A DNA stretch of 55,119 nucleotides, taken from the IMG/VR virus record IMGVR_UViG_3300045988_040260, positions 1-55,119 of that record; one strand, 5' to 3'. The notes under the pieces were generated by a model that ran no database searches, was not told the DNA's origin, and saw only the letters and a list, made by a program, of their open reading frames with translations. Positions within the stretch are counted from its first letter, which is position 1, and the number at the start of each line of letters is the position of its first letter. Positions 18,149 to 49,900 of the stretch are shown one piece after another. A program made the translations under genes and the position numbers. Origin of the DNA: a virus.

Positions 18149-18396
18149 CCTTTAATAAATATGTACAAGTACAGTAACAGGTCTTTATCTTCCACATTCT
18201 CAATCATTTTAATTATTTCATCCTTATATTCCATACAATGCCACCTCCGATACATCAATTATAGAACATTTGTTCTTAAACGTCAATAAGGACGGCAGAA
18301 AAATCCACCGCCCTACCGAAACTTGAAGAGTTCTCTTGTTTGAGAACATCATTACTGTAGCACTTTAAAGTGTTTTATTTTGTCGAAACATGCCGA

Positions 18397-18534
18397 CTAT
18401 ACAGCTTTTTGTGAAGTAATGTACTCATATTCCTCTTGCGATATTTTACCGCTTGCTACCCTGTCGAGTAGCTCCTCTTTTGTGACTCTGCCACTCTCAT
18501 ATAGCCTTTTAAGGCTCTCAACTAATATTCTCAT
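18397..18534 (-). CDS. XkdX-family small phage protein (45 aa)
   Basis: MRILVESLKRLYESGRVTKEELLDRVASGKISQEEYEYITSQKAV fits the XkdX pattern (..LYE.G.vT.e.l...V..GkIt.eEY..IT). Below the track cutoff. Confidence 0.65.
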   Translation of the reverse strand: MRILVESLKRLYESGRVTKEELLDRVASGKISQEEYEYITSQKAV

Positions 18535-18536
18535 AT

Positions 18537-18842
18537 TTAAAGTACCCCCTCGTCCATTAACTGCCTTGTATAGTTGTCTATCGCTTCCTCGTCAGAGTGC
18601 TCGTTAATCTCTTTTGCCTGTTCCATAGCAATAAGATACTGCGAGTATTCTTCCTGTGTCAGCTCGCGCTCCTCGTACTCCCAGTGCTTAGGCTTGTAAG
18701 TAAAATCATCCTCACTCCCTGTTGCTTCAACCGATTTAATGCTTTTTCGTTGATAAACGATATTCGGAGAAGATGTTGTGTCAATGTCAAGCGGTTTGTC
18801 CGGTTGCATACTTTCTACGAGTTTGTATTCTGTCATATTCAA
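18537..18842 (-). CDS. Hypothetical acidic protein (XkdW-position)
   Basis: 101-aa ORF. The 5' end overlaps the RT 3' end by 56 nt and it lies immediately upstream of the XkdX-like gene. Confidence 0.55.
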   Translation of the reverse strand: MNMTEYKLVESMQPDKPLDIDTTSSPNIVYQRKSIKSVEATGSEDDFTYKPKHWEYEERELTQEEYSQYLIAMEQAKEINEHSDEEAIDNYTRQLMDEGVL

Positions 18843-19932
18843 TACACCTTGCCTTTCTGTCTACTGTTGAAATTTTGTGTTTCATTTTGCCAAAATCTAT
18901 AAATGGTTTGATATGCTCCCTATAATAATCGTACATATCACAATTTTTAATCCACGCAAGAGCGGAAACCATTTGTTTTGCGTCATATATTGTAACCTTT
19001 GATTTTTGCCATATTCTGACCGCTTTTGTTCTTATTTTCTTAAGGATTGTTTTTCTTAAGGTGGTTCTGCTTCTGTAAAATTTATATCCCATAAAATCAA
19101 GTGGTCTGCCATATGTTGCTGGCTTTCCATTCTTGCCGACATATGGATTTCGGGGCAAATAGTGAAAACGAAATATCTGCCAGTTTGCCTTGACTGTCAA
19201 GCCTAATTCTGCAAGGCTGTTATCAATCACGGCTTTTACCTGGTGCAATTTCTTTTTGCTTGCACAAAATATAGCCATATCGTCAACATAACGTGCATAT
19301 TTCAGCTCAATGCCAAGCGATTTAATTTCATGGTCAAGCTCGCCTAAATACCAGTTAGCAAGCCATACAGATGTATAAAAACCAAGCGGTAAGCCGTTCG
19401 GCACACAATGTATGACATTTTCAACAATCTGCATAAATTTAAAATCTTTGATTTTGGATTTAAGCTTTTCGATTAATTTATCCTGTGGAATACTAGCGTA
19501 AAATTGCTTCACATCAAGCTTATAACAGTATTTAATGGCCTTACCGCCTTGCCTTATCCACTTGCATATACATTTCTTGCCATATGCACCGCCACGCTTA
19601 GGAACCGAGCCGTAACTGTGTTCATACATTCCTTTGTTAAACATGGGTTTAAGTACATTAACTATCATGTGATGTACTATTGACTCCATAACTGTTGGTA
19701 TTACTATCTTGCGTTTCTTTCGTGATATTCCGTCATATATTTCTTTGGGCTTATGTTCAAAAGGTGTGAAGTTAATCGCATATTCTCTAATTTTAGGTAT
19801 GTATGTATCAAGGTCTGCTAAAATTTTCCTAACCTTATTTCTTCTCTTTTTACCCTTAGAGAAGTTTTGAATTGCAAGTTTTATATTTTCGTCTGAAATA
19901 AATTCAGCATATAGATTTCTGTATGTTTTCAT
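18787..19932 (-). CDS. Reverse transcriptase (DGR-type)
   Basis: 381 aa from the ATG at 19932. RT motifs ..NGLPLGFYTSVWLANWYL.. and ARYVDDMAIF (YxDD). Lies 134 nt downstream of the template repeat. Confidence 0.88.
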   Translation of the reverse strand: MKTYRNLYAEFISDENIKLAIQNFSKGKKRRNKVRKILADLDTYIPKIREYAINFTPFEHKPKEIYDGISRKKRKIVIPTVMESIVHHMIVNVLKPMFNKGMYEHSYGSVPKRGGAYGKKCICKWIRQGGKAIKYCYKLDVKQFYASIPQDKLIEKLKSKIKDFKFMQIVENVIHCVPNGLPLGFYTSVWLANWYLGELDHEIKSLGIELKYARYVDDMAIFCASKKKLHQVKAVIDNSLAELGLTVKANWQIFRFHYLPRNPYVGKNGKPATYGRPLDFMGYKFYRSRTTLRKTILKKIRTKAVRIWQKSKVTIYDAKQMVSALAWIKNCDMYDYYREHIKPFIDFGKMKHKISTVDRKARCIEYDRIQTRRKYATGQTA

Positions 19933-20065
19933 ACGTATTCTCTTCCTATCCTCTCTACCACGTTCGACCATTTCCTACTACTAGCAGTAGCTTGCATCGA
20001 GTTAATTTTTACCAAGGGGTACGGAATTTAGTCTGCATTCATTTTATCCCATGAATGATAGGTAC

Positions 20066-20173
20066 AGAAGCCCCGATGTTCCACCTCGCGTTACCAGCCT
20101 CGTTGTTCAAGTTCACGTAGAACGCGCCACAATGACGGCCGTTGTTCAGGTGGCCACCGAAAAGAGCAAAGGC
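20066..20173 (-). repeat. DGR template repeat (TR)
   Basis: Non-coding 108-nt copy of 20307-20414. On the minus strand it carries A at 12 of the 13 mismatch positions. In the VR frame it reads 7 AAC codons. Confidence 0.88.
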
Positions 20174-20232
20174 GCAAACTAAATCCCTTATATAAAATTA
20201 ACTACACACGTTTATAGTTACAAATTTTCTTA

Positions 20233-20268
20233 GGAGAAACGCGGTTTCTCCCTTTCTGCTTAGGCAGA
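20233..20268 (-). promoter_or_regulatory. Two hairpins just 3' of the VR (candidate DGR target-recognition structures)
   Basis: ggagaaac-gcg-gtttctcc (20233-20251) and tctgc-ttag-gcaga (20255-20268). Confidence 0.45.
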
Positions 20269-20291
20269 AATTCCCTCTTCCCTGTTGCAAG

Positions 20292-21560
20292 TTATTTGTA
20301 GGAAAGAGAAGCCCCGAAGTCCCACCTCGCGTAACCAGCCCCGCTGTACAAGCTCACGCCGAACGCGCCACAAGGACGGCCGCGGTTCAGGGGGCCACCG
20401 AAAAGAGCAAAGGCTATAATTGCAATATTAAACCAACAACCATCAGGATAATAGGTCGATGATGAGCCTGTAATTGATGTTGGAAACATGCCTAATGCCG
20501 TGTATAACATATCTTTGATATATCCGCCACTTGTACCACTAGGAGTTGAATTAGGTATCTCGATATACCCTGTTCCATCAGTGTTATAGTTGGTTGCTTT
20601 GCTCCCATCCTTTGTTGACGGAGATAGCTTGACTTTTGCTATACCATTAGCTAGGATAAGTCCGGCTGTTCGTCTCCACTGATTGCCGTAGTAATTCTCC
20701 ATTCCAAATATTTTAACTCCGGCTTTTCCAGTATTTTCGCCCCAAAATAAGCCTTTGCCATTCATTGTGCCGGTCTTAAGCAATAAGTTTTCATCACTGA
20801 CATTTTCGCTCATACCTCGCCCGAATACATCTTGTGTATCGGTAGATTTTCCCATGATGATAAGCAAAATATTAATCAAGAGTCTGTCGACATACTGCTC
20901 AATTTCATAGCCTGTACCATTAGCTCTTGCATATGTCATTTCTTGGCTGGCTGTTTTCGATTTAATAACTGTTTGTCCGCTTATTGAACGCAGCTTATTG
21001 TTGCCGTCAAGTGAGCCATTATAAATTGGTGTATAAAAATGAGATTTTTCATTGCCGTTAATATCAATAAAATTCAGATTTTTAAAATCTTTATCAGCTT
21101 GGTAGTTGGCAACATAAAGGCTTGCACTGTTTGGATTGCCCTTGTCGGGTGCAATTTTCCACCATATAATGTCTGTGCCATTGCCCCATTCCATCATAGC
21201 ATTTCCATCGTAATCAACGTTTGCTATATCTGACGCACTGCCATCTATTTTTTTAGTCAAGTCGTTTTCATTGAGGTAATAGTCAACCTGTCCATTTGTT
21301 TTAAGCATACATGGTCTTGGCATGAAAAAGACATTTGCCCATGAGCCATAATCAAAAGTTCCACTCGTGAAATTCATGGCCGCTGGAGTCATGCCTACTG
21401 CGTCTGCTAAATATCTGACTCTTGTTTTCGGGTTACTATCCGCCCCATTAATGTGAACACCATAAATAACTCTTCCCTCACTTAATTTTGTACCAAGGGC
21501 TTTAATACTCTCAACAATTGCTTGCCCTGTTGTATCTGATATAATGTCTATTCCGCTCAT
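20292..21560 (-). CDS. DGR target protein: tail fibre/receptor-binding-like protein with variable C-terminus
   Basis: 422-aa ORF at the end of the tail module. The last ~40 codons contain the VR (..FGGPLNRGRPCGAFGVSLYSGAGYARWDFGASLSYK). Confidence 0.85.
   Translation of the reverse strand: MSGIDIISDTTGQAIVESIKALGTKLSEGRVIYGVHINGADSNPKTRVRYLADAVGMTPAAMNFTSGTFDYGSWANVFFMPRPCMLKTNGQVDYYLNENDLTKKIDGSASDIANVDYDGNAMMEWGNGTDIIWWKIAPDKGNPNSASLYVANYQADKDFKNLNFIDINGNEKSHFYTPIYNGSLDGNNKLRSISGQTVIKSKTASQEMTYARANGTGYEIEQYVDRLLINILLIIMGKSTDTQDVFGRGMSENVSDENLLLKTGTMNGKGLFWGENTGKAGVKIFGMENYYGNQWRRTAGLILANGIAKVKLSPSTKDGSKATNYNTDGTGYIEIPNSTPSGTSGGYIKDMLYTALGMFPTSITGSSSTYYPDGCWFNIAIIAFALFGGPLNRGRPCGAFGVSLYSGAGYARWDFGASLSYK
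20307..20414 (-). repeat. DGR variable repeat (VR)
   Basis: 95 of 108 nt identical to the TR. All but one difference lie at TR adenines. Confidence 0.88.
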
Positions 21561-21562
21561 AT

Positions 21563-22078
21563 TTAATCCTCCTTACTTACATTAAGCAATCCAGCGCTTG
21601 TCACGGAAAAAGTAATGCCTCTTCCGTTTGCTTTCTGCTCGACAAGTCCGGCTTGCTGTTCTGCTCTTTGTGCGGCTTCATTCGCGGCCTTTGTAGCTGC
21701 GTTTGCTTGACTTACCGCCGTATCAATCTTTCCTGAAATCTGTGTGACCTCGTTTGCTTTTTGCGAAGCAGTCTGCGCAGATTTTTGAGCCTGTGAAGCA
21801 GAGTCGCTTGCCGAGGCAGCTTTTTCTGTCGCAGTCTGCGCTGATTTTTGAGCCTGTGATACGGATTGAGCCATGCCGTCAAGGTAACTCTGAATAAGTC
21901 TTTGAATTTCAACGTCAAAATCCTCAACAGTTCCCATTCGCTTAACTATTCCGGGTGCGAAACACATCCATATCTGCTGTTTTTTCGTGTCGGAGTCGGT
22001 CGATACCGCCCATTCTCCGGCTTTCATTTTTGAGGGGTCAAACTGTGCGTATGCCCCTCGTCTCATTTGAATAGCCAT
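21563..22078 (-). CDS. Tail fibre-associated protein with Mtd-N/hyaluronidase-like N-terminus and internal 21-aa repeat
   Basis: MAIQMRRGAYAQFDPSKMKAGEWAVSTDSD.. The motif SQAQKSAQTA is repeated through a 63-nt DNA period (21768 / 21831). Confidence 0.6.
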   Translation of the reverse strand: MAIQMRRGAYAQFDPSKMKAGEWAVSTDSDTKKQQIWMCFAPGIVKRMGTVEDFDVEIQRLIQSYLDGMAQSVSQAQKSAQTATEKAASASDSASQAQKSAQTASQKANEVTQISGKIDTAVSQANAATKAANEAAQRAEQQAGLVEQKANGRGITFSVTSAGLLNVSKED

Positions 22079-22081
22079 AAG

Positions 22082-24475
22082 TTACACCTCGCTTTCATCA
22101 ATGCCTAATTTCTGACACAATTTTGAAAACTTATCTTCCAATTCATCTATGTGTTTTTGCATTTTATCAATCTTCTGCTCATCTCCGGCAAGTCTTAAGA
22201 TTAAGAATTGCTCATAATTCATGCCGTAGTACAGTGTATCATCATCCGATGTTGCTTTGTTTTGGAAAATCATATTAAGGTTTTCATCGGCATGTCCTTT
22301 ATCTTTAAGGCTTTCGATTACATCCTGTGCCATTGCTCCAAAATATAACGGCTTGTCTGAATATCCTTGTCTGTTAAGATTGTATTGGAATAAATCAACC
22401 GAGCCTACTGCGTCAATATAATCTTGATTAATTGCTTTAATATTCTTTTTTAAGCGTTTATCTGACGAACTCCATACCCAAGTAACATCAACTTGGAAAC
22501 TTAAGGCACTACCATCCCAGTTGCAGTGATATGTATGTCCTGTTGCATTGCCACACATAGCATACCCTCTATCAGTCTCTCTGAATTTATCAGATTGTAC
22601 TTCTTGAGCACTCATTGTCTGTTGCGCACTTATTGTCTGTGCGCTCATTATCTGCGCGCCTATAGCGCCTACGGCTCCGTAGAGTGTAATCATGTTCTCG
22701 CCATTTTTGTTAATTCGCAAGACTGCGCCATTCATCCAAAGTTCATAATTGTTTCCTGAATTGTCAGTAGCTTTTAAATCAATCTTTGAATTACTTAAAT
22801 TTCCGTTCAGTGAAATACTTACCGCATCATCAAGTGTAATACCTTTGTTATCCAGCGTTACAAGTGTCTTTCCGTTTGCGTCTTTGACATACTGCTTGCC
22901 GTTTACGTTATTCTCACCACCTAAAGTGAGCGTACCACCATGTGCCCAATCAAAATTAATGCCGATAACCGACATAATATTGAAAATAGCATTTCCATCT
23001 TTATCAATTCCGGCTTTCCATGTCTTGCCGTAATCATTTGATACAGCCATGCCATTAGCTGTCATTTTCCACTGTATGTTACTCGAATTAAGGTCGGCTT
23101 TATTATGCATAATGTAAATAATTGAGCCATCCTCTTGCACCTGTTCAGTCTTAAAAAGTCCGAGCGATTGAGACATTAGCTGTGTCAGCAATTGCATTTG
23201 CTTGTCATATACACTTAGTTGTGCCTGTGCAACTTTCCTAGCTTGTACGACAGCCTTTGTCTCATTACTGAATTTATCAGCGCTATTTCTTGAAGCATTT
23301 TCAGCGTCACATGAAATTTTTGTACCGCTTCCAACTGTAAATGTTCGGTTAGAAATAAAGCAGCTATAGGTATTCTGCTTGCGGTCTGTCACAAGTGCCG
23401 CGTCTCCGCTCTCAATCAGTGGATTTGATAAAAGCGTAGCTTGAAGCGGTCTGAACCTCATGCCACCGATTTTCTTGAAGATATAATTTGCAACTTCCTG
23501 TGCTTTGTCTGCCGAAATAAACGGATTATCAGAAATTGAGATTACATATCCCTCTTTTCCGGCAAGAGCGTTAACATCTTTTGTCTTATCCTCTTTCGAT
23601 GTCACAATAACTTTAACACCTGTAATAACAACATCATCGGTCGCAACATTCAAGTCTTTTTGTGTGTAAACATTGTGGTAATTTCTCGCTTCTGTAAATG
23701 TTCCACCATCAACACTATCTCCGTCAGAATAATTAAATGTTCCACCATCAACACTATCTCCGTCAGAGTATGGTGTAGTTTTTGTGCTAAAAGTTCCACC
23801 ATCGTAGCTCTGACTGTCAAACTGACTCATATCGTACCAACTGATAAGCAATTCACCATCGTGACCGCACTTACCCCATAATCCGCTTAACTGCAGGATA
23901 TAGGCTATCACCTGTCCATATGTGAGTTTTTGATTATCACTTGGTATCTCGTTAATCACGTAATCAGAGTTATCAAATCTCGCCATAGTAAAAGGTACAT
24001 CACACTTAATACAAGCGTCTCTGACTACCTCATACGCTGTCGTGGGGTAGCTTAAATTGCTATCATACTCACGATTGAAATTATTAATATTGTCAAGGCA
24101 AGTAAGCGTTATGAGCGAGCCGTCATAGCTTGTCTCGCTGACTCTATACTCACCAATTTTTAATTTTTCGGTTGTGCCGTCGGAAAAACTTTTTGAAACA
24201 TATGCTGTTACGCTTGCCTTGTCAAAATCGTACTTGCTGTAATCTTCATAAATGTTATTCAGCTTAATTTTCAGTTTTCCGGCAATCAAAGCCCCGATTG
24301 TGAAAGTACCATTGCTTGATGTTGAATCATTAACCTCGAAGCCATTTGCCCACAGCTCACCATCACTAATAGGGATTTTTTCACCGCTTGCCGTAACTAT
24401 GTCAGCAAAGCAATTTACGTTTATATCATTGTCGAGCATTACTGCTCTTTGCCATTTAGCCGATACTTTAAGCAT
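22082..24475 (-). CDS. Tail-tip/tail-spike protein with C-terminal S74-type intramolecular chaperone domain
   Basis: 797 aa. The C-terminus ..SSSDKRLKKNIKAI..LYFGAMAQDVIESL is typical of autoproteolytic chaperone domains. Has an internal 13-aa tandem YSDGDSVDGGTF. Confidence 0.7.
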   Translation of the reverse strand: MLKVSAKWQRAVMLDNDINVNCFADIVTASGEKIPISDGELWANGFEVNDSTSSNGTFTIGALIAGKLKIKLNNIYEDYSKYDFDKASVTAYVSKSFSDGTTEKLKIGEYRVSETSYDGSLITLTCLDNINNFNREYDSNLSYPTTAYEVVRDACIKCDVPFTMARFDNSDYVINEIPSDNQKLTYGQVIAYILQLSGLWGKCGHDGELLISWYDMSQFDSQSYDGGTFSTKTTPYSDGDSVDGGTFNYSDGDSVDGGTFTEARNYHNVYTQKDLNVATDDVVITGVKVIVTSKEDKTKDVNALAGKEGYVISISDNPFISADKAQEVANYIFKKIGGMRFRPLQATLLSNPLIESGDAALVTDRKQNTYSCFISNRTFTVGSGTKISCDAENASRNSADKFSNETKAVVQARKVAQAQLSVYDKQMQLLTQLMSQSLGLFKTEQVQEDGSIIYIMHNKADLNSSNIQWKMTANGMAVSNDYGKTWKAGIDKDGNAIFNIMSVIGINFDWAHGGTLTLGGENNVNGKQYVKDANGKTLVTLDNKGITLDDAVSISLNGNLSNSKIDLKATDNSGNNYELWMNGAVLRINKNGENMITLYGAVGAIGAQIMSAQTISAQQTMSAQEVQSDKFRETDRGYAMCGNATGHTYHCNWDGSALSFQVDVTWVWSSSDKRLKKNIKAINQDYIDAVGSVDLFQYNLNRQGYSDKPLYFGAMAQDVIESLKDKGHADENLNMIFQNKATSDDDTLYYGMNYEQFLILRLAGDEQKIDKMQKHIDELEDKFSKLCQKLGIDESEV

Positions 24476-24855: not shown

Positions 24856-24888
24856 GTAAAAAGACACCCACGCAAGGGCGAGTGTCTT
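24856..24888 (-). terminator. Hairpin plus T-run overlapping the tape-measure stop codon
   Basis: Minus strand reads AAGACAC-N15-GTGTCTT-TTTT. Confidence 0.45.
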
Positions 24889-27800
24889 AACCAAATTCAT
24901 TTGCTACGATATATCGTTGTCCGTGCTTTGCCTTGCCTACCTGCGTCATGCGATAGAGTGTTTCGCTGTCGCACTTAAACACATTTTCAATGATAGGCGC
25001 AGAGTTTCCACCAGTGTTAGAGTTCATCATTACTTGTGCCATGCCTTCCATGACAGCCTGTTTAATTCCCTCTGTAATTTGTTGGTTATTTGCTACCACG
25101 TTTTTGCCGTTTGAGAACTTGCCGACTAATTCGTTGTGATTAATAAAAGCCATGCCGTCCTCTCCTCTTGGGAAAATTCCACCACTAGCAAGCCTTGGAA
25201 TATGCACTCTTGGGACTAACGATACTCCGCCCCAATTTGCGCCAGCCACCTTAGCAGCCATAGAAACAACTTTGTTAAATCCTCTTAATAAAGAGTTAAT
25301 TCCACTGACAACAAAATTAACCCCATTCTCTATTTTTGAAATAACGTAATTCATAGCTCCTGTAACGCCACCTCTTATTGAACTCCACACATAATTAAAC
25401 GCGTTTGTAATTCCGTTTTTCATAATATTAAAGCAGTTTGTGATAGGCGAAATAACATTGCCATTAAACCAACCCGCCACGCTTTGCCAAGTAGATATAA
25501 CAAAGTTCTTTGCTACGCTAAGTGCCGATGTTATGCCAGCTTTCAACATATTAAAGAAGTTTGAAATCGGTTGTATTACTGTACCGCTAAACCAACTTGC
25601 CACCCCTTGCCATGTTGAAAATACAAAATCTTTTGCTGTCTGTATCGTTGTCTGTATAAGTGTTTTTAAAAAGTTAAACAGATTTGAAATTGGAGTAATT
25701 ACATTATTATTGAACCACCCCGAAGCTACTATCCAAATTGCTTGAATTATTATCCAAATACCTTGAAAAATCTGTTGTGCTCGTGTGGCAAAACCTTTGA
25801 AAAATCCGACTATCGGCTCAATTACTGTGGAGCTAAACCATTTCGAAGCTCCTTGCCACACAGTTACTATGTCTTTCCATAGAGAACCGAAAAAGCCACT
25901 TATGGTTTTCCACATATCTTTAAAAAACGAAACTACAGGCTCAATGACATTTCCATTGAACCATTCGCCAACTGTTGAAAATAGTTCACAAACTGCATTC
26001 CAATTATCTTTTATCACAACAACAATCGTTGCGACTGCTGCCACTATTGCTCCAACAATTACCGCTGGCAATGCTGCCACACCAGCTAATATTGCTCCGA
26101 TTGTAGTTAATGCGACACCTATTACCATTAAAATCTCATTCACCCAGCTAAATCCGTCTTTTAGCATTTTGACAAAATTTACAATAGATAAAATTGTTCC
26201 GGCTATTGCCGAAAAAGCAGAGCCGATTGTTGCTAATAGGTCTGCTGCCCCTGTTCCGAATGCAGCCGTTATTGCATCGCCCAAACTTAAACCACTGAAT
26301 AGTCCTTCTATAAGTAGCCCGAGGTTTGTTGACAATGAAGCAAAAATCGTTTTAAATGCTTGCATTATTGCTGTTCCAATACCAGCTCCTTCTACAAGCT
26401 CAAATCCAATTTTTGAAGCTATTGCCTGTGCTATCGCTTTTGATAATGATTTTCCAATAAAAGCGAGTGCCACTGAACCCAATTTTAACGAAATTATCTT
26501 TTTTATCAGCAATGTGCCAACTATTATCTCAACAGTTTTAATGTCTAAATTGCTTAAAAAGTCCGTAATTCCTTTGAGTATGTCTTTCCACGACACATTT
26601 TTAATTGCTGTGGTTAGCATGGTGTATATTCCTTGTACCCACGCGTTAATAGTTTTTGCCAATAATGCAAAATCAAAATTCTCAAAAAATCCATTAATGC
26701 CGTTAGCAATCGACAAGCCAAAATTAGACCAGTCAAATGTTGTACCGAATGAATTAAGGAAATGCAAAGCTGTGTTCAGTGAACCGGCTATTGTTGCGCC
26801 CAAATCGTAAAAGAGTCTTGGGCTGATTAAGCCATTAAGGAAGTCTGCAAGTCCTTTTCCGAAATTGTCAGCTTTCTGATAAATCTTCTTCCAATCAATG
26901 CTCTCCATAGCACTCGCAAGAGCGTCACCGATGTACTTTCCGAGTGAGTAAAGGTCTTTGATTGATGATTTGTATTTTTCAATCAATCCATCGGTCTTTT
27001 TCAGTGAGCTATCAACACCACCGCCAGCTCCACCGCCGCCTGAACCGCCACTGCCCGAACCTCCGCCACTGCCACTATCGCTGTTATCGTCAAGTGCGTG
27101 TATCTCGTCTATGCTAAGCAATGTCTTTTTAAGTTTTTGAGCTTTCTTATTAGAACTATCAGCGCTATCGCCAATATCGCCTACTCCGCCAGCTATGTCC
27201 TCCATGCCGTCAACAGTAGCACCGCCACCGCTTATCTCGATAGTCCAGCCGAAGATTGCTCCGAGTGCGTCAGCTACAGTTTTTGTAAAGCTGATAACCT
27301 TAAGCATTACCTTGCTTAAGGCTTGAACAAATGGCTTTAAAGCATTGATTATTACGCTACCTATGATACTGCCCCATGCTTGGAACTCTTGCTTAAGGAC
27401 TCTTATACTGTTGGCCCACGTATTAGCGGTCTTAGAGAAGTCCTGCTGTGCAGCTTGCGTATTTGCCATGACATAATTATATCTTAGCAATACCTTTTCA
27501 GCTTGCGTCATTGACTTGATATTTGCGTCAAGTCCGTTTTTCATAGCCCACTCTGAAAGTGTGGCCTGTGTTAAATCAAGTCCATATCTCCTTAATGGTG
27601 CGATTGTGCCTGTAAAAATGGATTGTAGGCTTTTTGCAACATCAGCTTGGTCTACATCATAGAATGAAGCCATATCGCCAGCCAACTTTGTGAGATTAAG
27701 TGACATATCAGCCATACTGTCTGTAGTCTTGTATAGCGTGTTATTTTGGCTCATAAGAGCTTTATTTGCCACTGCCGTACCATTTGCCACTTGCTGTGAT

Positions 27801-28660
27801 GTAATACCTACAGAAGTGCCTAACGCTTGGAAACGGCTTGATATTTGCTTAACTGTCAGCTCTGACATTCCGAAGTCTTGAATTGATGTTTTTGTAAAAT
27901 CATCAACCTTGCTTGCCATATCGCCAAACGTGGTATCTACTACGTTCTGAACCTCGGTTAATTGGCTCGCTAAATCAACTGCACTGCCTAGCTTTCCGAC
28001 AGCTCGCATAACTAACCAATATGTTGCATAAAACTTACCAATGGTTGAAGCTAAGCCACTAAAGCCACTCCTTGTACGCTTAATCGACTTGCTTGTGTTT
28101 GAAAAGCCTGTTACAAGTGACCTACTAGCCGAGCCGACTTTTGAGCCTTGCTGCGACAGATTAGCAAGTGCGTTAGTCATTTGAATAATGTTGTTGCTAA
28201 CTCTCGGTGCGTTAGATAATGTTGTCATTACCTCTTTCAGGGCGCTGCCAAGGCTTTTGATATTATCCGCAGCATAACCGGCTGATTTTGAACCGAGCTT
28301 TGAGATTGAAGCTGTTAGCTGTGTAATCTCTGCTGATTGCTTTGAAATATTTGCAAAGCCCGACAGTTCTGTTGCCATGCTCTTTAAAGCACTTGCCGAG
28401 CTGACAAGTCTTGCAGTATCAAGGTTGCCGAGCTTTTCCATGTTAGTTGCAATCTTGCTAAAGGTACGTGTGTCAATACTGCTCACACTTCTAAGTGATG
28501 TCGCAAGTTGTGACATTCCGCTTGCAAAATTACTTATGCTTGCACCATTGAGGGAATTGAGAGTACTTCCAAGTCCTTGCAACTTACTTTGTAAATTGCC
28601 TATGGCTTTAATCGCTTGTTGTGCGTCCGACTCGATTTGAAGCTCAATGCTCTCTGCCAT
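24887..28660 (-). CDS. Tape measure protein
   Basis: 1257 aa with a helical N-half, a G/S-rich linker (SGSGGGSGSGGSGGGGAGGG), TM-like segments and five W(F)xGxVIxP repeats. Position follows the tail chaperones. Confidence 0.9.
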   Translation of the reverse strand: MAESIELQIESDAQQAIKAIGNLQSKLQGLGSTLNSLNGASISNFASGMSQLATSLRSVSSIDTRTFSKIATNMEKLGNLDTARLVSSASALKSMATELSGFANISKQSAEITQLTASISKLGSKSAGYAADNIKSLGSALKEVMTTLSNAPRVSNNIIQMTNALANLSQQGSKVGSASRSLVTGFSNTSKSIKRTRSGFSGLASTIGKFYATYWLVMRAVGKLGSAVDLASQLTEVQNVVDTTFGDMASKVDDFTKTSIQDFGMSELTVKQISSRFQALGTSVGITSQQVANGTAVANKALMSQNNTLYKTTDSMADMSLNLTKLAGDMASFYDVDQADVAKSLQSIFTGTIAPLRRYGLDLTQATLSEWAMKNGLDANIKSMTQAEKVLLRYNYVMANTQAAQQDFSKTANTWANSIRVLKQEFQAWGSIIGSVIINALKPFVQALSKVMLKVISFTKTVADALGAIFGWTIEISGGGATVDGMEDIAGGVGDIGDSADSSNKKAQKLKKTLLSIDEIHALDDNSDSGSGGGSGSGGSGGGGAGGGVDSSLKKTDGLIEKYKSSIKDLYSLGKYIGDALASAMESIDWKKIYQKADNFGKGLADFLNGLISPRLFYDLGATIAGSLNTALHFLNSFGTTFDWSNFGLSIANGINGFFENFDFALLAKTINAWVQGIYTMLTTAIKNVSWKDILKGITDFLSNLDIKTVEIIVGTLLIKKIISLKLGSVALAFIGKSLSKAIAQAIASKIGFELVEGAGIGTAIMQAFKTIFASLSTNLGLLIEGLFSGLSLGDAITAAFGTGAADLLATIGSAFSAIAGTILSIVNFVKMLKDGFSWVNEILMVIGVALTTIGAILAGVAALPAVIVGAIVAAVATIVVVIKDNWNAVCELFSTVGEWFNGNVIEPVVSFFKDMWKTISGFFGSLWKDIVTVWQGASKWFSSTVIEPIVGFFKGFATRAQQIFQGIWIIIQAIWIVASGWFNNNVITPISNLFNFLKTLIQTTIQTAKDFVFSTWQGVASWFSGTVIQPISNFFNMLKAGITSALSVAKNFVISTWQSVAGWFNGNVISPITNCFNIMKNGITNAFNYVWSSIRGGVTGAMNYVISKIENGVNFVVSGINSLLRGFNKVVSMAAKVAGANWGGVSLVPRVHIPRLASGGIFPRGEDGMAFINHNELVGKFSNGKNVVANNQQITEGIKQAVMEGMAQVMMNSNTGGNSAPIIENVFKCDSETLYRMTQVGKAKHGQRYIVANEFG

Positions 28661-28845: not shown

Positions 28846-29763
28846 TTAAAAATGAAACTTGTCATGCAGAGTTTTTCTCAGCCACTTAATGGCTGTCGGG
28901 CAATCATGAATCTGTCCGCTCCACAAATTGTGATTTTTAGCAAATCTCTGTGAATTAGCTCCAAACTTGCCATCTTCCTTAAGTTCGTCTGTGTCAAATC
29001 CGATGTTCATAGCATGTTGCCATTTTCTTACATCATCATTATCGAGGTAATATTCCTCATTGCCTTTCCAAGCGTTATTTTTTACCGGAGTTGCCGTTGG
29101 TGTCGGAGTTGCTATTGGTGCCGGATTATTCTCTATTCCGTCACCCTTATCAAGCTCAATATAGAGTAAGTTAGCGTCAGTGCTGTTATTCAGACCGCTA
29201 CAGGTAAATGCACTTGAATACTGCCAGCCATACAGAGGATGTTGAATAACAGGCTTCTTTGCACTATTAGGCTCATCACCGATAGACATTCCTTTAGTTG
29301 ATGGATAGCGTGCAATCCAAAATGGACAGTTAATCTGATTTGCGTATGGCACAATATACTGATTGTAAAAGCTAAGTCCTGTGTATACACCAAAGTTAAG
29401 CCCGGCACTTTTGATAACACTCTGATATGTGTTGATAATATCAATAAGTGTCTGTCCGAGTCCTTGCTGACATTTATCTTCAACATCTAACCAAACAAAA
29501 GTTTTTCTTCCGGCAAGTGTCTGAATGACCTTATTTGCGTCTGTCTTTGCTTTTTCTACTGTTGTAGCGTATGAGTAGTTGTAAACACCTTGTATTGGCA
29601 TTCCTACATCAGTACAGCCTTTCCAATTTCGCTCAAAGGTTTTATCCGGATTAAGGTCTTTACGGATTATTTTCAGAATTGCAAATTGCACCCCAGCCCA
29701 CTTAACCTTACTCCAATCAATATTTCCTTGATATGACGATACGTCAATTCCTTTATATGCCAT
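28846..29763 (-). CDS. GH25 muramidase (endolysin-type) with C-terminal peptidoglycan-binding-like domain
   Basis: MAYKGIDVSSYQGNIDWSKVKWAGVQFAILK.. is a GH25 N-terminus. The C-terminus WQHAMNIGFDTDELKEDGKFGANSQRF is PG_binding_1-like. Confidence 0.85.
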   Translation of the reverse strand: MAYKGIDVSSYQGNIDWSKVKWAGVQFAILKIIRKDLNPDKTFERNWKGCTDVGMPIQGVYNYSYATTVEKAKTDANKVIQTLAGRKTFVWLDVEDKCQQGLGQTLIDIINTYQSVIKSAGLNFGVYTGLSFYNQYIVPYANQINCPFWIARYPSTKGMSIGDEPNSAKKPVIQHPLYGWQYSSAFTCSGLNNSTDANLLYIELDKGDGIENNPAPIATPTPTATPVKNNAWKGNEEYYLDNDDVRKWQHAMNIGFDTDELKEDGKFGANSQRFAKNHNLWSGQIHDCPTAIKWLRKTLHDKFHF

Positions 29764-44341: not shown

Positions 44342-44361
44342 ATCTCCTTATTTTTTGATAA

Positions 44362-44442
44362 TCGGATAGACAGGAATCGAACCTGTGACTCCCTCAATTA
44401 CTGCTATTGCAGTGGTTATTCTTCCAACTGAACTACTATCCG
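44362..44442 (-). tRNA. tRNA-like gene with non-canonical anticodon arm (isotype undetermined; possible pseudo-tRNA)
   Basis: Acceptor CGGATAG/CTATCCG, D arm GTTC..GAAT and T arm ACAGG-TTCGATT-CCTGT are canonical. The anticodon arm folds as ACTGC-AATA-GCAGT, a 4-nt loop. Confidence 0.45.
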
Positions 44443-44693
44443 AAAAAGGAAATATTCACTCCATCAAAAGGTTTGTCAAAACGCATAAAGGCTTTGCTTT
44501 GAAGTGTATTTCCGATTACTTTCAGCGCGCGTCTTACTCATAACCTTGTTTTTGTGCGTTTTCATTTTACTTTGCCTTACTGTATCGCGCCAACACGTAC
44601 AGACCGCCCTACTCTAACTTTTTAAGTAAAGCATGTCAGCATTACGCAACCGCTATTCAAGATATAACAGCTCGCACTAAGCCGACATATGAT

Positions 44694-44820
44694 TGATGTG
44701 GTGTGGATTTGAACCACACATGAAAGACTTACTTTCTCATAATGTCCCCCGAGAAGTGCTTTCTCTGTATTACGTTTTGCAATAGACATTTCATAGCGTT
44801 TACTCATTCCGCCACACATC
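44694..44820 (-). ncRNA. 127-nt tRNA-like element (Leu-type D arm, long variable arm, canonical T arm, about 40 nt extra in the anticodon region)
   Basis: Acceptor GATGTGT/CCACATC (6 bp plus 1 mismatch), TGGCGGAATGAGTAAACGC, variable hairpin GAAAG-TAAGT-CTTTC and T arm TGTGG-TTCAAAT-CCACA. No clean 7-nt anticodon loop. Confidence 0.4.
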
Positions 44821-44843
44821 AACAGTCAGCATGCACCGACTAG

Positions 44844-44930
44844 CGCAGATACAAGGACTCGAACCTTGATAACGATTTTACTCGTTAGAGAGATTAGCAA
44901 TCTCCTGTGATACCATTACACCATATCTGC
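44844..44930 (-). tRNA. tRNA-Ser (anticodon GCU)
   Basis: Acceptor GCAGATA/TATCTGC, anticodon stem GGAGA/TCTCT with loop TTGCTAA, long variable arm AACGA-GTAAAA-TCGTT and T arm CAAGG-TTCGAGT-CCTTG. Confidence 0.85.
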
Positions 44931-45232
44931 AATTTTATTCGCCATACCTATGATTCTTTAAGTTTTGTGGTTTCTGGTTCATCAAATATTATTCTCATAG
45001 ATATGGCTTAATCGAGACTTCATGCCTAGCTGATATTGCACAGTATGGAAACCTTAGCATACTTCCGCAATACTTTCTTTTCACCGCTTCACTGGATTTT
45101 GGAAATACAATAATACGCTCAGCAAGTTGAAAAACAATTATTCTTTTAATCCCCATAAGGGCATCCCATACAATAATCATCAAAACTCCCTCGCTTCGCA
45201 TAATTATTTGTTCTAGGTATTTCAACCTATAG

Positions 45233-45304
45233 CTGGCAAGGTGGGAATCGAACCCGCGACAAGTCGGTTAACAGCCGACTGCTCTACCATTGAGCTACAA
45301 GCCA
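45233..45304 (-). tRNA. tRNA-Asn (anticodon GUU), imperfect acceptor stem
   Basis: D arm GCTC-AATGGTA-GAGC and anticodon arm GTCGG-CTGTTAA-CCGAC are canonical. The acceptor TGGCTTG/CTTGCCA has two T:T mismatches and the T stem has one C:A mismatch. Confidence 0.65.
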
Positions 45305-45650
45305 GTAATGAGGGTGAAGTCTAAGGAGTGGCAACACCCTCCGGAGATATAATTTGTATGTGCTGTAGGAAAAGAACTAACGAAACCTACAGCAAAGGGC
45401 ATGTGAGGGATTGTACCTCACCTAAGACTCACTGATTTGAGTTGCCCTAGTTTAACAATTAAAGGGGGGTATATATGTCTACTCTGCCTATTACAGATGT
45501 CTTTACGACAGGTTGGTTTTCACGCTCGTGTATTGTGGGATTATACACGATTAAACCCTCACGAGCCTTGTGACGGCTCTTAACAGCTTTCCACTATGAG
45601 GGCGAAAGGAACTACTAAGTCCAATGTCGGGGAACCAAGTAAACCCCGAA

Positions 45651-45722
45651 CAGGGCATGTTGGATTTGAACCAACGAATACAGGAATCAAAATCCTGTGC
45701 CTTACCGCTTGGCGAATGCCCT
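45651..45722 (-). tRNA. tRNA-Gln (anticodon UUG)
   Basis: Acceptor AGGGCAT/ATGCCCT, D arm GCC-AAGCGGTAA-GGC, anticodon arm CAGGA-TTTTGAT-TCCTG and T arm GTTGG-TTCAAAT-CCAAC. Confidence 0.9.
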
Positions 45723-45726
45723 ATAT

Positions 45727-49722: not shown

Positions 49723-49818
49723 ATGAGAGATTTTATCGAGCTTTTAAAGGCTTTAAGCCTTTTTATATCGTGCCTTGTAATTGGGTATGGTGGTTTGTTT
49801 TTATTTTTTATTAAATAG
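49723..49818 (+). CDS. Possible 31-aa hydrophobic peptide
   Basis: GGGGGGAGG RBS. Sequence MRDFIELLKALSLFISCLVIGYGGLFLFFIK. Confidence 0.3.
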   Translation: MRDFIELLKALSLFISCLVIGYGGLFLFFIK

Positions 49819-49863
49819 CTAATATCGAGGGATTTTTTAGCCGGTTCGATTCCGGCTATTAGT
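49818..49863 (+). ncRNA. tRNA-like minihelix (acceptor stem plus T arm only)
   Basis: GCTAATA ..15 nt.. GCCGG-TTCGATT-CCGGC TATTAGT. D and anticodon arms are missing. Confidence 0.4.
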
Positions 49864-49900
49864 TTTATATATAAGGCTTTTAATGTCTTATATAATCTGT

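Follow-up and report, generated by a model that had tools for sequence, protein, structure and literature searches.

The stretch of DNA analysed here (the window; 55,119 nucleotides, positions 1 to 55,119 of the IMG/VR virus record IMGVR_UViG_3300045988_040260) carries on its minus strand a locus that had been predicted, from the letters of the DNA and a list of its open reading frames (ORFs), to be a diversity-generating retroelement (DGR). On the coding strand the locus consists of a tail-fibre-like target gene, a non-coding interval and a reverse transcriptase (RT) gene with a YVDD motif (19279-19290), after which come a small acidic protein gene and an XkdX-family gene (Table 1). A repeat search of the region returned a single direct repeat pair of 108 nt with 88% identity. 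One copy, the variable repeat (VR), lies at the 3' end of the target ORF, and the other, the template repeat (TR), is non-coding and lies between that ORF and the RT gene. The coordinates and the placement of the pair were those of the original prediction and needed no correction. The two copies are separated by 133 nt that contain no ORF.

On the coding strand, 13 mismatches separate the TR from the VR. In 12 of these the TR has A and the VR has C, G or T; the thirteenth mismatch is T>G (TR 20119, VR 20360). The TR holds exactly 20 adenines, all of which fall at codon position 1 or 2 of the VR frame and never at position 3. The adenine-bearing template codons are seven AAC plus CAC, CAT, TAC, GAG, AGG and ATC, and the VR retains a single AAC, the other six reading CGC, AGC, TAC, AGC, TAC and GAC in the frame of the target ORF. 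The recount of the differences and of the codons thus agreed exactly with what had been predicted. By the hypergeometric distribution, 12 or more of the 13 mismatches would coincide by chance with the 20 adenines of the 108 positions with a probability of 5.4e-10. When a pattern with N at every adenine position was searched for in the 55-kb window, only the TR and the VR matched (0 matches were expected from shuffles), and no second VR, which would mark an extra target, was found in the window by this adenine-degenerate search. The common 3' end of the TR and the VR is CGGGGCTTCT, beyond which the copies diverge. It is GC-rich and a candidate for an initiation of mutagenic homing (IMH) sequence, but it is not a (GC)14-type IMH.

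Scans of metagenome and viral contigs yielded approximately 45 loci with an RT 91-100% identical to that of the window and approximately 70 more at 34-53% identity; these are designated by L numbers, L001 being the window itself. When 18300-22100 was compared as DNA with 50,697 phage records, nothing matched, and relatives in those records were found only at the protein level. In 29 distinct TR/VR pairs of the close lineage, 369 of 377 mismatches were at template adenines (a first count, over 30 pairs, gave 368 of 377). By template base, substitutions were found at 369 of 586 A (63%), 1 of 779 C (0.1%), 2 of 965 G (0.2%) and 5 of 802 T (0.6%). The 59 more distant cassettes had 882 of 912 mismatches at template A. 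The VRs of 30 close relatives were all different, whereas their TRs comprised 19 variants, and non-adenine changes in a TR were copied into its cognate VR. The protein-column entropy of 112 target homologues peaked exactly at the template-adenine codons. The original prediction had named variation spread evenly over all bases as the pattern that would speak against a DGR. Because nearly all of the close-lineage mismatches are at template A, such a spread is excluded; the variation in related genomes is uneven and concentrated at the TR adenines.

The RT protein of the window was also found, unchanged, on other contigs. One of these loci (L002) has a TR with two A>G changes (positions 40 and 60), and both G's are also present in its VR. 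The L002 VR differs from its own TR at nine positions, all nine at adenines. The presence of the TR changes in the VR is direct evidence of information flow from TR to VR. Pairs of loci from different human gut samples were then compared over the VR and its flanks, taken as 1,150 nt on the upstream side and 1,500 nt on the downstream side. Between L016 and L017, none of the 2,650 flanking nt differed but 11 positions of the 108-nt VR did; the corresponding numbers of flanking and VR differences were 2 and 9 for L011 and L066, and 4 and 18 for L006 and L070. These comparisons of sequences indicate that the DGR of the close lineage has been active recently.

Table 1. Features of the DGR locus and its immediate neighbours in the window
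Feature	Position	Strand	Remarks
XkdX-family gene (neighbour; end marker of the tail-fibre module)	18397..18534	-	Pfam Phage_XkdX 1.2e-8; same order in Faecalibacterium phage FP_Epona
Small acidic protein gene (neighbour, outside the DGR)	18537..18836	-	99 aa, pI 4.3; phrog_20201; overlaps the end of the RT gene
RT gene	18787..19932	-	381 aa from ATG 19932; ORF open to 19971 (394 aa as listed)
TR-RT spacer (3' part of the DGR RNA)	19933..20065	-	133 nt; almost invariant in 30 relatives
Match to Rfam RT-18 (RF03021)	19942..20021	-	44.0 bits against a gathering score of 41.3; E 1.2e-5
Short hairpin UACC-CCUU-GGUA, then AAAA	20006..20021	-	4 bp; YNYU-type loop; directly after the duplex
3' duplex arm GCAGACUAAAUUCC	20023..20036	-	spacer nt 30-43; 14-bp pairing with the 5' arm, clamping the TR
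Spacer hairpin CAUUCAU-GGGAUAAA-AUGAAUG	20036..20057	-	7 bp; directly before the duplex arm
TR	20066..20173	-	non-coding; 133 nt upstream of the likely RT start
5' duplex arm GGGAUUUAGUUUGC	20174..20187	-	14 nt directly 5' of the TR
Three inverted repeats just downstream of the VR	20233..20308	-	DNA fold z = -2.8 against shuffles
Target gene (tail-fibre-tip protein; predicted C-type-lectin-fold C-terminal domain)	20292..21560	-	422 aa; phrog_5302 'tail protein' 1.2e-92
VR	20307..20414	-	codons 383-418 of the 422-aa target; 15 nt before the stop codon

The likely start of the RT is its second Met (MKTYRNL...), which is where the homologues and the alignment with the Bordetella enzyme begin. The protein contains an RVT_1 domain (2.7e-21) and belongs to the phage RT family phrog_1423 (6.9e-88). 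Its best match among solved structures was 8ub7 (E 3.7e-14, aligned residues 15-314), a protein of 328 aa. Since the sequence of 8ub7 is identical to BPP-1 Brt in the alignment, it is the Bordetella DGR enzyme bRT, of which a cryo-electron microscopy (cryo-EM) study is available (Handa et al., preprint). The nearest RTs of cultured phages are those of Butyrivibrio phages Arawn and Idris (39% identity), Faecalibacterium phage FP_Epona (37%) and Lactobacillus phage LBR48 (35%). All of the phage and metagenome homologues examined, at 34-100% identity, are encoded just downstream of a TR/VR pair of their own, the mismatches of which are adenine-specific.

An ordinary duplication or gene-conversion tract, lying beside the RT of a group II intron, a retron or a defence system, would be a quite different explanation of the locus. 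Weak NCBIfam matches to group II, Drt3a and retron models were indeed obtained. However, they were far below the curated cut-offs: 109 bits against 300 for group II maturase TIGR04416, 62 against 235 for retron St85, 92 against 200 for Drt3a, 49 against 390 for Drt2 and 38 against 250 for AbiA. An Rfam search over 18300-21700 found no intron or retron RNA (an intron not even at E up to 1) and matched only RT-18, RT-17 and RT-4. The genes around the RT gene belong to the phage tail. Furthermore, the adenine bias of the window (P = 5e-10) recurs in 88 independent cassettes. The probability that the locus is something other than a DGR is negligible. The original prediction had made its case dependent on where the RT would be placed. 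The protein fell short of the group II, retron and Drt cut-offs, had bRT as its best match in the PDB and has its homologues in TR/VR cassettes; its grouping is based on these hidden Markov model scores, the PDB match and the cassette context.

RT motif 4 reads GLPLGFYTSVW (19363-19395). Compared with the DGR signature [LIV]GxxxSQ, the L, G and S are kept and the Q is replaced by V; the signature is taken here as diagnostic and not as a functional definition. The SV motif was present in all 33 loci of the lineage, including one with only 70% identity (L002-L035, L053, the close viral-contig loci of L059-L070, and L115). On the other hand, SQ was present in all 19 more distant loci in which the motif was found and in four phage records (Arawn, FP_Epona, LBR48 and BPP-1). 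In the bRT structure, Q187 touches the base of the incoming nucleotide. Because the SV lineage shows clean adenine mutagenesis, the Q is evidently not required, and SV is read as a variant within the family. Template adenines were changed to G, C and T in 36, 33 and 31% of cases in the SV lineage and in 47, 23 and 31% in the SQ relatives, a difference from which no conclusion is drawn because selection and shared ancestry confound it. The non-adenine TR/VR differences of the close lineage were mostly T>G, about half of them adjoining a template adenine, and T>G was also found in the SQ-type relatives.

The target ORF has no Pfam match, and searches of the PDB with the single sequence and with a shallow profile were empty. 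A deeper profile matched TaqVP only; the match was weak (E 0.0055) and collinear, and it included the C-terminal variable segment. The target family is very large; a search for it found 2,701 cluster representatives with E no higher than 1e-3. When a diverse alignment of 54 sequences was used, AlphaFold 2 gave a model with a mean predicted local distance difference test score (pLDDT) of 94.4; an earlier model from 37 close homologues had reached 55.7 (approximately 37 at the C-terminus), and its fold search was non-significant. A Foldseek search of the PDB with the better model returned TaqVP (5vf4; E 1.3e-11), then Mtd (1yu0-1yu4; E 3.5e-4 to 1e-2) and then formylglycine-generating enzymes (FGEs). 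Among the predicted viral structures of BFVD, the model matched 'tail collar fiber proteins' with E values down to 4e-49. The BFVD matches include tail fibres of crAss-like phages, the genomes of which also encode homologues of the window RT. According to the model, the target has the C-type-lectin/FGE-like fold of DGR variable proteins, the fold that the original prediction had proposed for its C-terminus. The description as tail-fibre-like is reasonable in view of phrog_5302 and the BFVD matches. The same is true of its description as the last structural gene of the tail module, after which come only the RT gene, the small acidic gene and XkdX. The target is no tentaclin, for which N-terminal C-lec and Ig-like domains are the criteria; its lectin-fold domain and VR are C-terminal, as in Mtd and TaqVP.

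The locus therefore combines adenine-specific TR/VR differences, an adjacent DGR-type RT, a VR in a C-terminal lectin-fold domain, one-way transfer from TR to VR and a structured spacer RNA (see below). The adenine bias, the kinship of the RT, the fold of the target and the VR-confined variation of the relatives all support the original prediction. The window almost certainly carries a functional DGR of the compact target-TR-RT type without Avd, located where the tail module of a temperate gut phage, probably one of Agathobacter rectalis, ends.

Between the VR and the RT gene, the non-coding DNA hardly varied among the 30 close relatives, the proteins of which differ by up to 8%. The spacer and the 5' flank of the TR contain several paired elements (Table 1). 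The duplex that clamps the TR is preserved in L053 by two compensatory double changes, and in seven further loci (L071, L130, L105, L131, L085, L136 and L075) the arms are wholly different in sequence yet complementary. In these calculations, RNAduplex gave messy, over-extended pairings with weak z when 50-nt 5' flanks were used, and shorter flanks gave clearer results. The short hairpin followed by an A-run was found in 58 of 63 non-redundant relatives compared with 9% of shuffled spacers, and it was formed by nine different stem pairs. A match to RT-18 was located just upstream of the RT gene in 12 of 20 relatives (L036, L040, L042, L072, L075, L080, L081, L085, L099, L105, L130 and L132), and the spacer of FP_Epona is Rfam RT-4 (124 bits; L056:3361-3477). 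These motifs were described beside RT genes by Weinberg et al. (2017), who tied only RT-10 to a DGR, that of BPP-1, the others being speculative. To judge from the matches and their positions, RT-18 is clearly a DGR spacer RNA here. The structured RNA of this DGR thus comprises the RT-18 match, the 14-bp flank:spacer duplex, the hairpin and the A-run, with covariation.

In the cryo-EM structure of the Bordetella ribonucleoprotein, a template:primer duplex abuts a duplex between the avd sequence and the spacer, which is followed by a stem-loop and A-minor adenosines; this assembly is called the 'cPRT Stop'. After it, the Bordetella DGR RNA has more RT-binding stem-loops, and its Avd-binding stem-loop is formed by spacer nt 3-33. 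The layout of the duplex, the 7-bp hairpin, and the short hairpin with its A-run in the window matches the 'cPRT Stop' assembly, and by analogy the duplex may have the stop role. The 7-bp hairpin would then be a candidate for the template:primer hairpin of cis-primed cDNA synthesis.

Three inverted repeats follow the VR within 75 nt. The first has a 9-bp stem (20300-20308/20275-20283) and spans the stop codon. The second (20253-20270) has 7 bp and the loop CTAA, and the third (20233-20251) is GC-richer, with 8 bp and the loop CGC. No T-run follows these inverted repeats on the coding strand. The hairpin region was near-invariant in the 30 close relatives, and hairpins with other stem sequences were found in L053 and in distant relatives. 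Guo et al. (2011) described a required hairpin 4-34 bp after phage VRs, with a GRNA loop consensus. The inverted repeats of the window are candidates for this DGR target-site hairpin or cruciform.

Families of Avd or of four-helix-bundle proteins were matched by 0 of the 58 small ORFs of the window (Pfam, NCBIfam), and the interval between the VR and the TR is free of ORFs. The avd gene is present in approximately 74% of DGRs, and an accessory gene is not a defining part of a DGR. In Bordetella, Avd is essential for bRT. On the other hand, 29% of the DGRs catalogued by Wu (2018) have architecture A, without accessory genes, and Avd-independent homing was proposed for them; other DGRs without Avd have an acidic accessory protein, CH1 (Wu 2018). 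For the DGR of FP_Epona, which also has no Avd, another small protein was suggested as a possible stand-in (Cornuault 2018). The gap between VR and TR measures 80-250 nt in most of the relatives, and cassettes without Avd are the rule across the clade. A longer gap of 290-400 nt, in place of approximately 100-170 nt, was observed in some relatives, namely L038-L048 (e.g. L040:2347-2747 and L042:2171-2529), L132, L135 and L136.

The gene after the RT encodes a member of a family of small acidic proteins (72-180 aa, pI 4.1-4.8) with the motif W..ES..P.E.DTxSS..VYxRKNI...W.Y.EA.LT..EY. This family is not represented in Pfam, and the protein of the window gave no match to Pfam XkdW. Most of the 69 distinct relatives have a gene of this family after the RT gene, and as a rule it overlaps the end of the RT gene. 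However, the family is also encoded directly after tail-fibre genes that have no RT beside them, usually before XkdX (L139-L141:3501-3845; L145:2948-3229). The acidic protein was therefore rejected as a DGR-specific substitute for Avd, and its occurrence beside RT-less fibre genes marks it as a member of the tail-fibre/XkdX module. The arrangement of the genes suggests that the TR-RT unit was inserted between the fibre gene and the acidic gene.

These observations bear on whether the DGR depends on a protein cofactor that has escaped recognition, which might be the acidic protein, a divergent Avd encoded elsewhere or a host factor. The dependence of bRT on Avd, the recurrence of the acidic ORF at the end of the RT gene, CH1 and the small protein suggested for FP_Epona all speak for such a cofactor. 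Against it stand the affiliation of the acidic family with the tail-fibre module and the lack of Avd-like families among the small ORFs. In addition, only 29 nt lie between the TR and the duplex arm, which is too short for a primer hairpin plus a stem-loop like that of Bordetella spacer nt 3-33. To judge from the spacing, an Avd-binding stem-loop would have no place here, in keeping with the missing avd gene. We consider a cofactor of this kind unlikely.

Several points weigh against a functional DGR of the kind proposed here. No Avd homologue was found, while Avd is essential in the sole well-studied system. The RT has SV instead of the signature SQ, at a site that in the alignment corresponds to the nucleotide-contacting Q187 of bRT. 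The activity of the window's own DGR is deduced from that of its relatives. The clamping duplex was statistically clear in about half of the relatives (33 of 63, z below -2), and the rest of its support is covariation recognized by eye. The loops of the post-VR hairpins do not have the GRNA consensus reported for phage DGRs. Finally, one of the 13 mismatches of the window is T>G, and non-adenine changes make up 2-3% of the mismatches across the relatives.

The first three of these points could be combined in the view that the DGR of the window is a fossil, the ancestors of which were active and which has lost homing, for example through the change from SQ to SV or through the lack of Avd. The window comes from a single assembly, the canonical Q is missing from the RT and Avd was not found. 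However, SV is common to all 33 loci of the lineage, the same lineage in which otherwise identical loci differ in the VR only. The RT ORF, the TR, the spacer and the flanking hairpins of the window are intact, and L002, the RT of which is identical, has a VR that tracks its own TR. Cassettes without Avd are, moreover, the ordinary state of the whole clade. Loss of function in the window is thus very improbable, and a DGR that is still functional remains the preferred reading.

A functional DGR at this locus would operate as follows, on the model of the Bordetella system. An RNA would be transcribed from just upstream of the TR up to the RT start. The 14 nt 5' of the TR would pair with spacer nt 30-43, and the hairpin with its A-run and the RT-18 stem-loops would lie alongside. 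The RT would bind this RNA scaffold, prime cDNA from the spacer in cis and copy the TR, erring opposite adenines only, and the duplex may stop the synthesis. The mutagenised cDNA would then replace the VR, possibly guided by the identical GC-rich 3' end of the repeats and by the post-VR hairpins. As a result, 12 codons (seven AAC plus CAC, CAT, TAC, GAG and ATC) at the lectin-fold fibre tip would be recoded, and receptor binding would be altered. A change of receptor specificity, and with it an effect on the host range, would correspond to what is known of Bordetella phage BPP-1.

Compared with the prototype, the mtd-avd-TR-brt cassette of BPP-1, the window has the same order of target, TR and RT at the end of the tail genes. 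In both, the VR is at the extreme 3' end of a fibre gene with a C-type-lectin fold, and an AAC-rich template is mutated solely at adenines. The window RT aligns with bRT over nearly the full length, and inverted repeats lie downstream of the VR. The TR is clamped by a duplex of upstream sequence and spacer, followed by a short hairpin and adenosines, and stem-loops precede the RT start. On the other hand, the window has no avd, a VR-TR gap of only 133 nt and no room for an Avd-binding stem-loop. Its RT is 22% identical to bRT, with SV in place of SQ (Q187), and its spacer is RT-18, that of BPP-1 being RT-10 (Weinberg 2017). Its target resembles Mtd at the fold level only (12% identity; locally 40% over 35 VR residues), and the probable host of its phage is Gram-positive.

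The cassettes of FP_Epona, Arawn and Idris have a closer likeness to that of the window. They consist of a fibre protein, an Mtd-like target with the VR, approximately 130-150 nt, the TR, a spacer, the RT, an acidic ORF and XkdX, the last being annotated in FP_Epona only. Their RTs are 37-39% identical and their targets 28-36% identical to those of the window, Avd is lacking and every TR/VR mismatch is at an adenine. They differ from the window in their phage backbones and hosts and in RTs that keep SQ, DNA similarity is undetectable, and FP_Epona has RT-4 as its spacer instead of RT-18. The arrangement is also that of architecture A1 (target-TR-RT) of Wu (2018), in which, as in the window, there is no accessory gene. 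The DGR of the prophage of E. rectale DSM 17629, an example of VR-proximal hairpins in Fig. 5 of Guo et al. (2011), comes from the same likely host species; it is compared here by its published description. The loops CTAA and CGC of the window lie outside the GRNA consensus given there. In the structure search with the whole target, TaqVP of Thermus aquaticus ranked first (Foldseek probability 1.00), although the identity is 16% and the TM-score only 0.43-0.47, and TaqVP is a cellular protein and not a component of a phage tail.

The compact architecture without Avd has already been catalogued, and the advances made here are specialist increments that hold no surprises. DGRs are the main known route by which phages rewrite receptor-binding proteins and are very common in gut phages, to which a single example adds little. 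What the lineage offers is dozens of near-identical prophages from different people that differ only at the template-adenine positions of one 108-nt stretch. The lineage is thereby well suited to natural studies of how host range diversifies in Agathobacter rectalis, a gut commensal that is abundant, and its near-identical pairs of loci are ready-made for work on recent DGR activity. In addition, the orphan Rfam motif RT-18 gains a function as a DGR spacer RNA, the architecture of stop duplex, hairpin and A-run seen in the Bordetella cryo-EM structure extends to DGRs without Avd, and a lineage-wide change from SQ to SV at a nucleotide-contacting residue of the RT is compatible with adenine mutagenesis. 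It is conceivable, and we propose it tentatively, that this clade of DGRs from Firmicutes phages (more than 60 distinct cassettes among the loci collected) needs nothing beyond its RT and its RNA for adenine-mutagenic reverse transcription, the RT-18 or RT-4 spacer and the duplex replacing the positioning by Avd, and that the Agathobacter-phage lineage is a natural Q187-to-V variant. If so, mechanistic studies, and directed evolution in Gram-positive hosts, would have in this clade a minimal DGR of two components, one protein and one RNA.

The window belongs to a temperate siphovirus-like phage, with an integrase, an excisionase, an antirepressor, an SPP1-type portal, a capsid protein and a tape-measure-sized ORF. 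The phage comes from the human gut, and its host is probably Agathobacter (Eubacterium) rectalis, an assignment based solely on the source names of homologous proteins. The sole relative found in a genome collection (L053; CAVKBM010000179.1) has an RT 70% identical to that of the window, the SV motif and a full DGR, and it was binned as 'Bacteroidaceae bacterium'. Because all other host hints point to Agathobacter, this contig may be a mis-binned phage. Scans of the window for promoters and terminators found sites no more frequently than in shuffled sequence.

Other genes of the window were noted in the course of the analysis. A glycoside hydrolase family 25 muramidase gene (28846-29763, minus strand) lies just upstream of the tape-measure-sized ORF (1,257 aa; 24887-28660), outside any lysis cassette after the tail fibres, and a holin family match was found among the small ORFs past 29.7 kb. 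The small ORFs between 1346 and 24871 had Pfam matches to Tad8, an inhibitor of type II Thoeris (4.5e-26), to the superinfection exclusion protein GP17 (5.5e-23), to the helicase-loader inhibitor G39P, to single-stranded DNA-binding protein and to a Tn916-type excisionase (1346-1804). A cluster of four tRNA genes (44361-45723, minus strand) encodes Leu-CAA, Ser-GCT, Asn-GTT and Gln-TTG, and a separate tRNA-Lys gene is located at 49772-49865 (plus strand). The phage tRNA Asn-GTT decodes AAC, the codon of the DGR template, which may be a coincidence. On the 5' side of the target gene there are genes for a coiled-coil fibre protein and for a 797-aa tail protein with an endosialidase-chaperone domain. 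A 41-nt direct repeat (21756-21796 and 21819-21859; 88% identity, 63-nt spacing) lies within the gene for the 171-aa alanine-zipper/coiled-coil fibre protein, upstream of the target gene, and codes for a repeated SASQAQKSAQTA segment.

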